Assembly (NCBI GenBank): GCA_013239625.1 | Contig: MU053557.1 | Span: forward strand, 4,370,123 to 4,434,122 | Reading direction: 5' to 3' | DNA from: Lama guanicoe | Taxonomy: Eukaryota | Length of the DNA stretch: 64,000 bases | Part shown: one piece after another, positions 8,188 through 63,334 of the stretch | Numbering within the stretch: position 1 is the stretch's first letter | Layout of the letters: each line of letters starts with the position of its first letter | Translations under genes and position numbers: made by a program | Notes under the pieces: generated by a model | The model's input: the letters and a program-made list of their open reading frames with translations, nothing else | What the model was told of the DNA's origin: nothing | Databases searched by the model: none

Positions 8188-8381
8188 TGGGCTTGCCAGA
8201 TTTAGCAAATAAAAATACAAGACATCCAGTTAAATTTGAATTTCAGATAAGCAACAATTTCTTTTTCATATAAGTATGTCCCAAATATTGCACAGAATAT
8301 GCTTACACCAAAAAAAAAAATCACTGTTTATCTGAAATCCAAATTTAACTGGGCATCCTGTATTTTAATCTGATAGTCCTA
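8188..8381. mobile_element. MER53 palindromic hAT MITE, inserted in a CR1/L3 remnant
   Basis: 'gggcttgccagatttagcaaataaaaatacaagacatccagttaaatttgaatttcagataa' and the inverted arm 'ttatctgaaatccaaatttaactgggcatcctgtatttt'. Confidence 0.9.
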
Positions 8382-8511: not shown

Positions 8512-8845
8512 ACAGTGTTTCTAATAGTATATATGAAAAATAGTAAAAGGTACACTGAGAGAAACAAAAAGGTTTTGAGGTCAAAAGTTTGGGAGGTCGA
8601 ATGTTTGGGAAACACTGCATGCCCAGTATTTCCATTTTGGGATTCACATTCTGCAATAGCGTAGTAAACATTTTGAGCAGCCTTGCAGGAAACATATCTG
8701 GTTGACCTGGTTTAACTTAGCATGCTTACAGAATGCTATTTATGGGCTTTTGTCTGTTTGTTTTGATATATTTGTTTTATAGAGGACACCTATTAACACC
8801 GTGCAAACTTACAGCTCTGCTCAGCACACTTTGGGGAACACTGAT
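8512..8845. mobile_element. hAT-Charlie non-autonomous element (Charlie4-like)
   Basis: Termini 'cagtgtttct' / 'ttggggaacactg'; internal 'gtttgggaaacactgcat...gattcacattctgcaatagc...gtttaacttagc'. Diverged relative of the element at ~62220-62510. Confidence 0.6.
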
Positions 8846-20389: not shown

Positions 20390-20680
20390 AACCAGCCCCA
20401 TGGGGCCATTTGAAAATGTGTGGAAATGCTTAAAATTGTCACCGTGACAAAGCAGACACTCCTAGCATTTAGTGGCTAGGGGCCAGGAAAGCTAAAGTTT
20501 CTGCAATTTCCAGGACAATAAAGAGTCATCCCACACAGTGGGGAGGGTATAGCTCAGTGGTAGAGTGCATGCTTAGCATGCACAAGGTCTTGGGTTCAAT
20601 CCCCAATACCTCCAATGAAAAAAAAAAAAAAAGAATCGTCCCACACAAAATGCCAATAGTCTTCTTCTGCAAACACCAGA
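20390..20680. mobile_element. MER20-related MITE hosting the SINE
   Basis: 'ggccatttgaaaatgtgtgg...agcatttagtggctaggggccagg...aaaatgccaatagt'. Confidence 0.55.
20538..20629 (+). mobile_element. tRNA-Ala(AGC)-derived SINE (camelid Vic-1 type)
   Basis: Full tRNA-like body (A box tagctcagtgg, anticodon arm gcatgcttagcatgc, B box ggttcaatccc, ending cctcca) plus an A tail; TSD aaagagtcatcccacaca (20520-20537) / aaagaatcgtcccacaca (20630-20647). Family name from recall. Confidence 0.85.
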
Positions 20681-41760: not shown

Positions 41761-43452
41761 TGAATCAAAGGAATGTATAAAAATGGCCCCAAATGTACAT
41801 TTTCCTGTATCGGTGATTTTTTCTTCTGTTTTCTCCTCTCTCATTCTCTAATTATTCTTTCTATCCTAAAATGTTGTTTCTGGTCTCTTCTCTTTCCCTT
41901 CTCTTTTTCTCTTTCTTTTTCTAGCTTTCCTTCTTTCTCTCACTCTCTCCTCTTTCTCTGCTTCCCGTCTTTTTACTATCTTTCTCCCTTAATTACCCAC
42001 AACAGAAAGAAATTATATTTTTACTGTTTTTTCAGAGTTTTATCTTTTTGTCTTCAAAAAGCTGGGTGTGAGAAGAAGAACGAAGATGAGGATGTGGAGG
42101 AGGAGGAGGAAGGCAGTGGAAGGAGGAGGAGGGAGGTGAAGAGAAAGGAGAAGGGGAGGAAGAGGAAGAAGAATAAAAAATAATAATCTGCTTTTACTCC
42201 CCCTCTGTAACCTGATACATTTAATAAGGTTTAAATGTTGGTAGCTTCCAGTGTAGGAGCTAGAACATCTACTCCAAGCATGGAGAGCAGCAAGGTTGAG
42301 TAAGGCTGAGCCCTGGGATTTGGATATTATTTACTCCAAAGCCATCAGAGAGAAAGAAAAAGTCACAAAACATTAAGTGTGAATGTTTTGTAGGCAATAA
42401 AAATGGAAATAGAATAGAGTTCTGGAACATTTTCAAAACACAAGAAGAAGACTCCTCTTTTAGAAAAGGAACTTAAAAAATCTAAGATATAAACAAAATT
42501 ATGCACAAGAATATTTGTCACAATATTATTTAAAATAATGAAGAATTGAAACAGCTTAAACATCTAAAAATAAGTGAAGAGTTAAATCATTTCTGGAACA
42601 TTTATGCAATGGACTACTAAGAATGTTAAAAATTTTTTAAAATAATCAAAATATCAAGTTACCTTTAATAATTTATTCAATGTCTTTTTGTTGAGCTGCT
42701 ACCTGCACTATAACACAGGCTGGGCATTCAGTGGTGGACACAGCCCATGCCCTTACACAACTTAAATTCAAATTAAAAATATAGATTTTAAACAATTAAT
42801 TGTACAAGTAATGAATTAAATGCCATTTAATCCTTATTTCAGTAAACACGCAATTCTATAACATAGTTTGTGTTATTAGATCCATTTTACAGATAAAAAC
42901 ATGAGGCTCACTGAGGTAAACAGAAGTTAGGTGGCAGAGCTGGAATTCAGATCCCAGTGGCCTGACTCCAGAGCCCAAACTCTAAACAAATCTCAAGGAA
43001 GGGCACAGAGCTGTCAGATGAGCCCCTCCGAGGCCCAACCAGGGAGAAGACCTAGCCCAGACCCAAGTATAAAGCAAAATTTTGTGGAAAAAGCAGTCTC
43101 TGCCCAAGACCTAAAAAATGGGCTGCAGTTTTTTAAGAGGCTCCTGACAAGGATGTGGGGACACTTTCCAAGAACTGAAAGCTCAGGAGGACTGCATGTG
43201 CTTTACCGACAGGGCTGGGGGACAAGGGACGGGGTGGGGGTGGGGCGGTAGGGGAGGCAGAAATGAGGCCAGAAGGGTAACCAGGGAACTGATGCCATAG
43301 GGCCCTGAAAGCTCAGTTACCACATTTAAATTGACCCTTAAAACTACTGAAAGTGTTTGAAGCAGAAAAGCATCAGGGTCAGTTTTCCATCTACAGAATA
43401 TAATTCTGGCAGCCCGGTGGAGAATAATTTGAACGCGTCAAGAATGAAGGCC

Positions 43453-43910
43453 GACCGGCAAAGCCCACGAACAACTCCCAGGAAACAATAGAACGTGGGT
43501 AATAAAATAAAGTCTAACCTTTTCTTCCATGTGCTTAGTCTAGTTTCACTTGCTCATGGAGTGCCGTGCAGAGGCTTCACCAACCGGCACCTCAGACCTG
43601 GTGCAAAATGTCTGCTCCCGGACTCGTCACTGGGCGGCTAGCTGTGTGTAGAAACCCGGCGCACGACACCGCAATTCAAGATGGCGGTGGCTGGCCGTGC
43701 GCCAAGACGCTGCACGGGGGACTGCCCTCCAGTCCCAGAGCGCCACGGCTGTGCCAGACTCGCGAGAACTGCACGAACCCTATAGGGCAGCCCTGCCCAC
43801 AGCCTTTATGGGCGGGCATGTGCTCTAGAGCAGGAGCTTGCACCTCTCTATTCTTTGATGGAAGAATAAAGCTTTCCTTTGCTTCTGGGAATTCAAAAAA
43901 AAGAAAGAAA
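43453..43910 (+). mobile_element. CpG-rich, poly(A)-tailed, TSD-flanked retro-insertion of non-L1 RNA (ERV2 LTR-like 3' end)
   Basis: TSD aatgaaggcc at 43443-43452 and 43911-43920; AATAAA 43865-43870; A-rich tail from 43895; YY1 motif caagatggcg; about 23 CpGs by hand count. The mechanism is well supported; the ERV identity is inferred. Confidence 0.75.
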
Positions 43911-44015
43911 AATGAAGGCCCAGAGGCCAATTAGAAGGCTACTGCAGTCAAACAGCAGAGAGATGATGATGTGAGAACCAGAATGGAAGAAGTAAGGAAA
44001 AAAGATATCTGGTCC

Positions 44016-49673: not shown

Positions 49674-51157
49674 CTAAGCAAGGAGGTGAAAGAATTATAC
49701 ACAGAAAACTATAAACCATTGATGAAGGAAATTAAAGAAGACTTTAAAAAATGGAAAGATATTCCATGCTCTTGGATTGGAAGTATCAATATTGTTAAAA
49801 TGGTCACATTGCCCAAGGCAATCTACAGATTTAATGCAATCCCTATCCAATTACCCAGGACATATTTCACAGAACTAGAACAAATCATAATAAAATTTAT
49901 ATGGAACCATCAAAGACCTAGAATTGCTAAAGCATTATGAAGAGAAAGAAAGAGGCTGGAGGAATAACTCTCCCAGACTTCAGACAATACTATAGAGCTA
50001 CAGTCATCAAGACAGCATGGTATTGGTACCAAAACAGACATATAGACCAATGGAACAGAATAGAGAGCCCAGAAATGAACCCACAAACTTTTGGTCAACT
50101 CATCTTCGACAAAGGAGGCAAGAATATACAATGGAATAAAGACAGTCTCTTCAGCAAATGGTGTTGGGAAAACTGGACAGCAGCATGTAAAACAATGAAG
50201 CTAGAACACACCCTTACACCATATACAAAAATCAACTCAAAATGGATCAAAGACTTAAACATAAGACAAGATACAATAAACCTCCTAGAGGAAAACATAG
50301 GCAAAACATTATCTGACATACATTTCAAAAATTTTCTCCTAGAAGAAATAAAAGCAAGAATAAACAAATGGGACCTAATGAAACTTACAAGCTTCTGCAG
50401 AGCAAAGGAAACCAGAAATAAAACAAGAAGAAAACCTACGGAATGGGAGAAAATTTTTGCAAGTGAAACCGACAAAGGCTTGATCTCCAAAATATATAAG
50501 CAGCTCATACGACTCAATAAGAAAAAAATAAACAACCCAATCCAAAAATGGGCAGAAGACCTAAACAAGCAATTCTCCAAGGAAGACATACAAATGATCA
50601 AAAAGCACATGAAAAAATGCTCAATATCACTAATTATCAGAGAAATGCAAATCAAAACTACAATGAGGTATCACCTCACACCAGTCAGAATGGCCGTCAT
50701 TCAAAAATCCAAAAATGACAAATGCTGGAGAGGCTGTGGAGAAAGGGGAACCCTCCTACACTGCTGGTGGGAATGCAGTTTGGTGCAGCCACTATGGAAA
50801 ACAGTGTGGAGATTCCTCAAAAGACTAGGAATAGACTTACCATATGACCCAGGAATCCCACTCCTGGGCTTGTATCCAGAAGGAAATCTACTTCAGGATG
50901 ACACCTGCACCCCAATGTTCATAGCAGCACTATTTACAATAGCCAAAACATGGAAACAGCCTAAATGTCCATCAACAGGTGACTGGATAAAGAAGAGGTG
51001 GTATATTTATACAATGGAATACTACTCAGCCATAAAAACCGACAACATAATGCCATTTGCAGCAACATGGATGCTCCTAGAGAATGTCATTCTAAGTGAA
51101 GTAAGCCAGAAAGAGAAAGAAAAATACCATATGAGATCGCTCATATGTGGAATCTAA
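49674..51157 (+). pseudogene. L1 ORF2p C-terminal portion (post-RT region plus CCHC motif), one frameshift near 49937
   Basis: [59 protein letters not shown]; 406-aa open stretch 49937-51157; lacks endonuclease and RT core, so it cannot be autonomous. Confidence 0.95.
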
Positions 51158-59465: not shown

Positions 59466-60145
59466 AGACAAGGCTGAAGGTGGTCCCTGACTACCTCCAA
59501 AACAAAGCCCAAAGGAACATGAACAGAAATGCTTCCTTCTCATCTTGCTTCACAGTTTTTTTACTCTGCTCTTTCTCCACTGAGTTGTGCCCCAAAATAG
59601 TCTCATGGAATCAATTAAGGGGTACATAGAGCAGACAATTTAATTCATGTTTCTTATAAAACATTTGGCTCCCAAGCTAGTAAGACAGCATCAGAGAATA
59701 TAAAACTTTATTTAATAAGAACAATGTACTAAAAATATCCTTTACTGAGCCATTGGGGTAATTAAAAGGGCACCAGTTCTCCTGGAACCAGAATCAGGAG
59801 TTCCAGCTGCTCATCGCTGTTCAGCCACAGCCTCACTTCTTCAATTTGATCTCAGTTTTGCCACGTGTACAAAGTTTTCCCTACGTCCTTCTTGACTCTA
59901 CTATTGTGGAATTCTATTATATAGAATAAGTTTTCCCAAGGTTGTGTGGGGCTTTCCCTGGTCGATGTGGGTGATCTATTATTTGTTTGTTTTGTGGTTT
60001 GTTGTTGCTATTGTTACTGTTTTGCTTATCTTGCTACTGCCAGTGCAGTCAACACTTCAAGCCAGGAAACATTTCTCATCAGTCAGATCAGACACATCTC
60101 AGTAATCACATCAGATGCTCGCTTCTATTAAAATGTCATGAGGCC

Positions 60146-61648
60146 CAATACAGTAATCAAAATAGCATGGAATTGGCACAAAAACAGACACACGGATCAA
60201 TGGAACCAAACAGAGAGCCCAGAAATAAACCCACACACTTACAGTCAATTAGTCTTCGACAAAGGAGGCAAGAATATACAATGGAGAAAAGACAGTCTCT
60301 TCAGCAAGTGATGTTGGGAAAACTGGACAGCCTCGTGTAAATCAATGAAGAACACTCCCCACACCATACACAAAAATAAACTTAAAATGGCCTAAAGACT
60401 TAAACATAAGACAAGACACTATACACCTCCTAGAAGAAAATATAGGCAAAACATCCTCTGACATAAAACTTAGCAATGTTCTCCTAGGGCAGTCTACCCA
60501 GGCAATGGAAACAAAAGCAAAAATAAACAAAAGGGACCTAATTAAACTTGTAAGCTTTTCACAGCAAAGGAAACCATAAGCAAAACAAAATGACAACCTA
60601 TGGAATGGGAGAAAATATTTTCAAAAGATGCGACTGACAAAGGCTTAATTTCCAGAATATATAAACAGCTCGTACAACTTAATAACAACAATAACAACAA
60701 CAACAAAAAACCCAATTGAAAAATGGGCAGAAGACCTAAACAAGCAATTCTCCAGTGAAGACATACAAATGGCCAATAGGCACACGAAAAAATGCTCAAT
60801 ATTGCTAATTATCAGAGAAATGCAAATCACAACTACAATGAGGTATCATTTTACACCAGTGAGAATGGCCATCATTCAAAAGTCCACAAACAATAAATGC
60901 TGGAGAGGCTGTGGAGAAAAGGGAACTCCCTGTACTACTGTGGGAAGGTAGTTTGGTGCAGCCATTATGGAAAACAGTATGGAGATGCCTCAAAAGACTA
61001 AAAATAGACTTACTATATGATCTAGTAATCCCACTCCTGGGCATATATCTGGAGGGAACTCTAATTAGAAAAGATACATGCACCCCAATGTTCATAGCAG
61101 CATCATATACAACAGCCAAGACATGGAGACAACCTAAATGTCCATCGACAGATGACTGGATGAAGAAGCTGTGGTATGTTTGCACAATGGAGTACTATCA
61201 GCCACAAAAAAGAATAAAATAATGCCATTTGTAGCAACATGGATGGACATGGAGATTGTCATTCTAAGTGAAATAAGCCAGAAAGAGAAAGAAAAATGCC
61301 ATAATATCACTCATATGTGGAATCTAAAAAAAGAAAAGAAGACACTAATGAACTTATCTACAAAACAAACAGACTCACAGACATAGTAAATAAACTTACG
61401 GTTACCAGAGGAGGAAGGGGGTAAGAAGGGATAAATTGGGAGTTTAAGATTTGCAGATACTAACTGCTGTATACTAAATAAATAAACAGCAAGTTTATAT
61501 TGTATAGCACAGGGAACTACATTCAGTATCTTGTAGTAACCTATAATGAAGAAGAATATGAAAACGAATACATGTATGTATATGTATAACCGAAAAATTA
61601 CTCTGTACACCAGAAATTGACACACTGTAAACTAACTTCAATTCTTAA
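60146..61648 (+). mobile_element. 5'-truncated L1 (1.5 kb, ORF2 disrupted)
   Basis: 16-bp TSD aaaatgtcatgaggcc (60130-60145 / 61649-61664); fragmented ORF2 homology; very short A tail; (AAC)n expansion near 60681-60710. Confidence 0.97.
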
Positions 61649-61795
61649 AAAATGTCATGAGGCCAATGCTGAGGAAGGCTCCCAGAGTTGTCTGAGATCC
61701 TGTTACTCCACCCTGAGGCTGAAGTGCTGGTTCATGCCCTGCTCACTGCTCTGGATCAATCACCAATTTCATCTTCCAAACAGGAAATGGACCCA

Positions 61796-62435
61796 TAGCA
61801 AAAAGTTTGGTTAGGACTAGGTTAAACTTAAAAGCTTTTTTTAAATCGCAGAACTTTACAAGGATTTTTAACATGCTAGGGCATACTGTAAACCTCTAAG
61901 AGGAGGGAAAAACTAGTCAGCATTGTCCAAACTTATTCAGACATTGAATCCTCTGGTCTGAGATTTAAATGGTAACCCCAAACATCAGGAAAGATGCCTT
62001 ACCACCTCATTTTCTAAATCCTCTGAGTGGGAAATAAGACCCAGAGATATATTGGTCTTTGTGGGGCTGAACAATTACACCTGGGCTCTGCACACCACAT
62101 ATGAGAGTTCAGAGTCAAGGCTACTTATAAAGGAGTTTTAACAAGAAGGGAGGCTGACTGGAGAAAAATTAGGAAGTAAGGAGGCAGAAGAGAGAAAAAA
62201 GAAGAACTAGAGAAAAAGGAAGTGTGTACCATGAAACACTTAAGGCACCTAAAATGAGTCTTTGAATGAAGAACACAGAGGATTCAATGTCTGAATAAGT
62301 TTGGACAATGCTGACTAGTTTTTCCCTCCTCTTAGAGGTTTACAGTATGCCCTAGCATGTTAAAAATCCTTGTAAAGTTCTGCGATTTAAAAAAAGCTTT
62401 TAAGTTTAACCTAGTCCTAACCAAACTTTTTGCTA
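61796..62435. repeat. Perfect inverted repeat, 160-bp arms, 320-bp spacer
   Basis: 61796-61955 is the exact reverse complement of 62276-62435 by manual comparison, including homopolymer lengths. Confidence 0.95.
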
Positions 62436-62510
62436 CAGAACTCAGTTTCCTCATAATACTTTTTAATATTTGTGGCATAGATAGTCAGAAAAACTAGTCT
62501 AAGGAAACCC
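62220..62510. mobile_element. hAT-Charlie non-autonomous element (Charlie4-like) containing the right IR arm
   Basis: 'agtgtgtaccatgaaacact...aataagtttggacaatgctg...ctcttagaggtttacagtatg...gtttaacctag...ccaaacttttt...acagaac'. Confidence 0.6.
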
Positions 62511-62689
62511 AGGTGCTGGAGTGAAGAGGTATAAATAGGGAACCAGTTCCTGTTTCCAAGGAGCTTACAAAATATTTGCCTACATGTAGGATTTTGCAAG
62601 ATATAAAGACCAGCTGAAGGTAACGGGAAAGGATAGTTATCCTCCAGGGAAGCGATACAGACAGACCATGTTGGATACCCTCTCTTAAT

Positions 62690-63000
62690 TCACAAGTTTC
62701 TGGAGCACCTAGTGTATATGCCAGACACCATGTTGGGCCCTAGGGATACACTGGTGAGCAAGGCAGACACAACCTTCCACTCCAAGAGCTTAACTTTCAG
62801 TGGGAAGAGATAAAAAATAAGTGCACAAGTAAGTAAATGTAGAATGACAAGTCAGAGGAGTGAGCTGAAGGAAAAGAGTGGGGTTCTCTCTCTAATAAAG
62901 TAATGGGAACAACTGCTTGAGCTGGGTCAGCAGTGGTGGTTTTTTGAAGGGTGTGACATTAAAGTTTCCACTTGAAAGACAAGAAGTTGTGCATGATGCA
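62690..63000 (-). mobile_element. L2 fragment
   Basis: 'gagcacctagtgtatatgccagacaccatgttgggccctagggatacactggtgagcaaggcagacac'. Confidence 0.8.
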
Positions 63001-63334
63001 AATGGGGGGAAAGGATCAAAACACACTTTACGGTGCAAGTTAAGGATGTGGGCTTGGCCTTCGAGCACAAGTGGGTTTAAAGAGAGAGAAAAAGGTGTCC
63101 AGTCACTTGTTAATTCAGACAATGTTGTATTGAGCCTCTAAGCTGATTCACTGAGCTAGGGATGAGCTGAAAAGCCTTTGGATTTCCTAGAACATTCCAT
63201 TGAGGAAGATGCAGGAAAGGTATAAACAAATAAAAGAATGAAGTCATTTCAGATAGTGAAGAAAATGCTATGAAGGAAAAAAATAGCAGGGTGATGGGAT
63301 GGGGTGAAGAAGAGGCAGTATTAGAAGATGTGAT

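Follow-up and report, generated by a model that had tools for sequence, protein, structure and literature searches.

A perfect 160-bp inverted repeat in Lama guanicoe, probably a one-time inverted duplication of old transposon DNA

Structure and Surroundings of the Inverted Repeat

The window analyzed here is a stretch of 64,000 nt of Lama guanicoe DNA (N count 0), and it contains an inverted repeat whose left arm (61796–61955, plus strand) and right arm (62276–62435, minus strand) are exact reverse complements in a self-comparison of the window (160 of 160 letters), separated by a spacer of 320 nt (61956–62275). The perfect 160-bp repeat and its 320-bp spacer had been described in a previous interpretation made from the letters alone (the sequence-only reading), and this description holds, including the non-palindromic nature of the spacer, whose halves show no palindromy (local score equalled in 35% of 300 shuffles). 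Among 23 inverted pairs of at least 30 nt in the window, the arm pair is the only one with 100% identity; of the others longer than 100 nt, the best has 83%. Arm identity ends sharply at the repeat borders. Residual similarity outside the arms is at chance level, with 15% of 292 random pairs attaining its anchored score; the faint similarity just outside the arms that the sequence-only reading had pointed out is therefore of a kind that random pairs also give. On the spacer side, similarity is likewise at chance level (anchored score reached by 52% of 292 random pairs).

The window as a whole is CpG-poor, carries L1 fragments and one tRNA-like SINE, and resembles non-coding mammalian DNA; judged by eye, its stop-to-stop frames of at least 95 aa are L1 ORF2 fragments only. 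Rfam gave one match over the window, at 20543, and none at the inverted repeat. This match belongs to a tRNA-derived SINE at 20521–20651 (Rfam tRNA 20543–20614, 48 bits) with a poly(A) and what appears to be a diverged target-site duplication (TSD) of ~20 nt, a SINE that we take to resemble vic-1. SINEBase lists vic-1 among the simple SINEs of camels (PMC3531059). The kilobase at 43001–44000 is richer in CpG than any other in the window (observed/expected 0.47, GC 52%) and is possibly a regulatory element or a young repeat.

To the left of the repeat lies a 5′-truncated, decayed L1 on the plus strand (60130–61664 with its target sites), the element itself (60146–61648) being bounded by a perfect 16-bp TSD (60130–60145 and 61649–61664). 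Its identity to an L1 copy with an open frame near 50 kb is 78%, and each of its frames holds 12–25 stops. At 49931–51154, a 3′ fragment of L1 keeps its ORF2 frame open over 408 codons and looks much younger than the L1 by the repeat.

If read as RNA, the region of the inverted repeat has a predicted folding energy of −355 kcal/mol, a stability attained in 0 of 20 shuffles and due to the inverted repeat itself. The double-stranded stem suggested by the sequence-only reading thus holds as a folding prediction only.

Presence of the Repeat in Sequencing Runs

Fourteen of the 24 listed runs contain 0.91–0.98 of 152 words sampled from 61665–63300; these 14 runs stem from five studies under four organism labels, 4 of the runs being flagged as a possible source. 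Contigs over 61640–62300 were compared for four of the 24 runs (X9, X13, X15, and X18), the small-share runs X16, X17, X19, and X20 being set aside. A 22-nt pattern from the spacer had 0 matches in a scan of metagenome contigs.

In X9 (organism D), which belongs to a separate study and is not flagged as a source, all four arm junctions are present in contigs. The left-flank contig stops 30 nt inside the arm (depth 34), the spacer contig has 380 nt (30 + 320 + 30, with 30 nt of arm at either end; depth 27), the right-flank contig shares 30 nt with the arm (depth 31), and the arm contig is exactly 160 nt long at a depth of 57 (57.4), compared to 27–34 for the flank and spacer contigs. This pattern is the graph expected of a genuine two-copy repeat, and the four junctions together with about twice the flank depth in the arm indicate that the repeat is not an assembly artefact. 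The 380-nt spacer contig, with arm sequence at both spacer ends, recurs in X13 (organism C), where the arm is joined to the right flank; three junctions are seen there, the two inner ones and the outer one on the right, and the left-flank contig is missing.

The repeat might have been produced by short-read assembly or gap filling in the source assembly, given that the arm is about as long as one read, that the left-flank contig is missing in X13, and that the whole arm with both flanks is found in no contig (the junction overlaps are 30 letters, one below the 31-letter bridging rule). The drop-out in X13 is likely technical, because two runs of one sample differ alike in word share (0.98 versus 0.91), and the four junctions at about double depth in the separate study of X9 speak against an artefact, as does the arm sequence on both sides of the X13 spacer. 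We therefore regard such an artefact as scarcely credible.

An Empty Left Site in Run X15

X15, a run whose kind was guessed as RNA, provides one contig of 373 nt (depth 8.3) that joins the left flank to the spacer without the arm, covering 61640–61798 (L1 tail and left flank) and 61980–62160 (spacer). Between 61798 and 61980 it reads 18 other letters, 13 of which equal window positions 61954–61966. The site in X15 consists of TAG, one base, and TG, and the window carries 155 nt instead of that base; the left arm thus comprises 155 new nucleotides (61799–61953) plus TAG (61796–61798, 3 nt) and TG (61954–61955, 2 nt), both already in the empty site. The donor on the minus strand begins with TAG and finishes with TG, and the chance of such a 3 + 2 nt microhomology match is ~0.0025 under a rough per-base model. 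No target-site duplication was found relative to the empty site of X15. The sequence-only reading had proposed to look for outgroups with only one arm in order to recognize a one-off duplication, and for the left site this comparison finds X15 without the left arm. Left flank and spacer of X15 have the same plus orientation as in the window, so that the spacer of the window haplotype, to which this statement is confined, is in its ancestral orientation, which fits type 1-4-3-2 and not type 1-3-4-2.

The evidence for the empty site is a single contig of a single run, and the contigs of X15 and X18 stop short of the right arm, whose presence in the outgroup is presumed. Splicing as the cause of the gap in X15 was rejected, as neither strand shows GT-AG at the gap ends. 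A hairpin skip by reverse transcriptase was rejected too, because it would remove the spacer together with the two arms rather than a single arm. RNA coverage was taken from X15 and X18, both guessed to be RNA, whose contigs cover flank and spacer and no arm; two recorded RNA-seq runs (shares 0.14 and 0.08) were left out. The X15 and X18 contigs over 61640–62272 faintly hint that the sister lineage transcribes this region, as an intron or as non-coding RNA, and DNA carry-over could account for them as well.

Over flank and spacer, X15 differs from the window in 4 of 340 letters plus one gap, and X18 (organism E) in 4 of 206, with G>A at 62114 common to both; in the spacer, X9 shows 1 difference from the window and X13 shows 0. 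These counts suggest that X15 and organism E represent a sister lineage, plausibly the Old World camels. The split between the camelid tribes is placed at 16.3 Mya, with a range of 9.4–25.3 (PMC6899786). Were X15 instead a haplotype of the ingroup, the duplication would be even younger.

The tail of the L1 is found in X15, which is without the left arm, and the L1 thus predates the duplication. A young L1 beside the repeat, as the sequence-only reading had it, does not agree with this finding, nor with the 78% identity and the numerous stops of the element. A causal role of the L1 was also rejected, because X15 matches the L1 tail and an L1-free site would give 5 mismatches in 9 letters, a comparison of few letters.

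A second difference between the window and X15 lies 11 nt beyond the inner junction, at 61967–61979 (plus strand), where the window has 13 nt and X15 has 4 nt, and it possibly belongs to the same event. A search for a local template of the 13 nt found none; the best candidate, in the L1 tail, had 8 nt, and the resemblance of the change to an upstream motif was matched by 9% of 5000 random 13-mers. The idea that the copy had landed within a MIR was dropped: a profile made from the SINE copies of the window had 41 matches, none in 61600–62700, and the likeness of the left flank to the profile consensus was equalled in 27% of 300 shuffles.

Which Arm Is the Original

The arm has a weak but real likeness to 8513–8843 (nhmmer E 0.066; local alignment score equalled in 0 of 200 shuffles), which bears out the loose relative near 8512–8845 mentioned in the sequence-only reading. 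This paralogous old element ends in CAGTGTT...AACACTG and served as an in-window reference for polarity. The element in the arms is presumably of the Charlie/hAT type, as the sequence-only reading had it, its match to the in-window paralogue being weak. The paralogue contains a 16-nt tandem duplication (8577–8610). Nearby, at 8203–8375, another inverted repeat, degenerate (80%), has arms of 64 nt around 45 nt of spacer, as is typical of old relics of non-autonomous DNA transposons.

Comparison of the arm flanks alone with the paralogue comprised 8 tests, of which one, that of the right outer flank, was significant: 62445–62495 (minus strand) aligns over ~50 nt with the 5′ end of the paralogue (score 41, equalled in 0 of 1000 shuffles). 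For the left outer flank, no significant homology to the paralogue was found (score 14, equalled in 57% of 1000 shuffles). Since homology to the element continues past the right arm only, the right arm would be the original, and it likely sits inside a longer DNA-transposon-like relic, of which 62445–62495 is a terminal part that was not copied, the left arm being a truncated copy. Insertion of a hAT element or MITE as the source of the left arm is not supported, as this terminal part is missing from the left copy and no 8-bp TSD is seen relative to the empty site. Adjoining the right arm on its outside is a weak, degenerate self-inverted stretch (62426–62530; nhmmer E 0.03). It borders on the point where copying would have begun and might have made the polymerase pause.

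These results bear on the headline of the sequence-only reading, in which two ancient transposon copies, inserted independently in inverted orientation, are kept identical by conversion. Such a history would account for arms that consist of old-element sequence and yet are perfectly identical. However, the left site is empty in X15, homology to the element stops at the left arm, and similarity beyond the arms does not exceed chance, so that we consider this history very improbable.

Arm Identity and Gene Conversion

If the arms are dated to the split itself, the divergence of 1.2–1.9% to X15 and X18 gives 1.9–3.0 expected differences and a probability of 0.15–0.05 that there are none. With a copy date uniform on the branch, the probability of no difference is ~0.31–0.44, and perfect arm identity therefore requires no conversion. 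The identity in the window is not above what the age of the copy allows.

The arm contig of X9 carries G at 61876 (C>G on the plus strand; partner position 62355), with no C version among the contigs. This G at full depth would suit a one-off duplication whose young arms have since been homogenised by conversion or template-switch correction, perhaps with flips of the spacer, as the depth of 57.4 lies within the 54–68 compatible with G in all copies, and as the paralogue alignment has C at the place of 61876, making G likely the derived letter, a weak argument. Equally, the depth is compatible with G in half of the copies and a collapsed bubble (48–60). Contigs of this kind commonly collapse 50/50 bubbles. 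Furthermore, the arm of X13 has no letter differing from the window, and the identity of the arms in the window is explicable without conversion. As to spacer flips, the loop of a template-switch hairpin can subsequently invert (PMC10710096); the 31-mer sets of the two spacer orientations are identical, so that contigs of either would look alike. On balance, we hold later homogenisation to be unlikely. The same doubt applies to the specific proposal that in organism D the G is present in both arms (61876/62355) and the spacer flips between haplotypes, the arms already co-evolving. Were it true, the locus would be a dated natural case in which concerted evolution set in immediately in a very short inverted repeat of non-genic mammalian DNA and in which the empty ancestral site could still be compared, and the organism-D variant in both arms would put a dated figure on conversion in so small a repeat.

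A Probable Origin by Template Switching

The reading that we prefer, with a probability of roughly 85%, is that a single event copied the right arm in inverted orientation and so made the left arm, through a microhomology-primed template switch of type 1-4-3-2. The empty left site in X15 and the homology beyond the right arm only point to a one-off copy and not to an old palindrome. In the proposed sequence of steps, the nascent 3′ end would leave its template after TAG (61798), anneal to the opposite strand ~480 nt further downstream, copy 155 nt backwards from ~62432 to 62278, and return at TG with the loss of one base, which would give the switch-point order 1-4-3-2; in the mirror case, the other nascent strand would fold back across the 320-nt loop. 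The event would have occurred after the split from the lineage of X15 and organism E and before organisms B, C, and D separated, and the arms would be identical because the copy is young, with no function required. The scar is observed in the sequence, and from it we infer the enzyme and the fork geometry.

Several points weigh against this reading. The second change at 61967–61979 is not accounted for by the single switch, the empty site comes from one contig of one guessed-RNA run, only 1 of 8 flank comparisons with the paralogue is significant, the left outer junction is absent from the X13 contigs, and the C>G of X9 could be present in both arms. The sequence-only reading had named a recent template-switch inverted duplication as its second option, and the empty site in X15, the microhomologies, and the homology of the right flank speak for it; of that reading as a whole, the template-switch duplication is retained, and the conversion-kept old copies and the link to a young L1 are not supported.

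The same insertion could have arisen by repair of a break, through a templated insertion of the polymerase-theta or MMBIR type, and this is a compatible variant of the template-switch reading. The 2–3 nt microhomologies, the one lost base, and the second change nearby would suit it, as would the MMBIR-type insertions described in PMC8421209, which are inverted, close to their template, carry microhomology of 2–12 bp, and occur as germline variants. On the other hand, fork and break-repair pathways leave the same sequence scar, and the tool of that study searches within 100 bp of the template, compared to the spacer of 320 bp here. We regard the break-repair route as possible, though the less probable one.

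Comparison with Known Systems

The locus resembles the template-switch types 1-4-3-2 and 3-2-1-4, as described by Loytynoja and Goldman (2017, PMC5453318) and Loytynoja (2022, bioRxiv 2021.11.26.470150), in that a new perfect inverted repeat is formed from a nearby template. In these sources, type 1-4-3-2 creates an inverted repeat without the need for a pre-existing one and makes up 31% of 794 human-chimp template-switch events (PMC5453318), and short-range template switches have a mean length of 11.56 bp, with per-individual maxima of 97–180 bp for unmasked events (outside repeats) and 318 bp overall (bioRxiv 2021.11.26.470150). Like the short-range switches so described, the event at this locus has the order 1-4-3-2 and 2–3 identical bases at the switch points; unlike a typical one of them, it involves 155–160 nt, a spacer of 320 nt, and an extra change 11 nt away.

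At 155–160 nt, the locus equally fits the small inverted duplications of human structural variant catalogues (PMC4617611; PMC12350158). There, inverted duplications constitute 54% of 229 characterised inversion sites, being mainly shorter than 1 kbp and at most 5 kbp from their source (PMC4617611), and 277 human inverted duplications have a median of 284 bp and mostly 1–15 bp of microhomology (PMC12350158). Unlike the catalogued cases, this duplication is apparently common to several camelid organism labels and is not a human polymorphism, and the copied DNA here is an old transposon relic. The MMBIR-linked insertions of PMC8421209, which occur in the germline and are sometimes complex, share with the locus an inverted copy near its template and microhomology at both junctions; the spacer here exceeds the 100-bp search range given for that study.

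Near-perfect arms around a spacer are also found in the palindromes of sex chromosomes, such as P6 of the human Y. Sex-chromosome palindromes are far larger, and arm-to-arm conversion has reportedly been shown in them by population genotyping. Unlike those palindromes, the locus has arms of 160 bp, one of which is missing from an outgroup sample.

Taken together, the locus is an ordinary instance of an already known mutation class, probably a clean camelid example of a common class, rather long for a short-range template switch, in which the two alleles and the microhomologies can be read directly. It also illustrates that perfect identity within ancient repeat DNA need not imply conversion, for the DNA may be old and the copy young, and the left arm could serve as a presence/absence marker of lineage.
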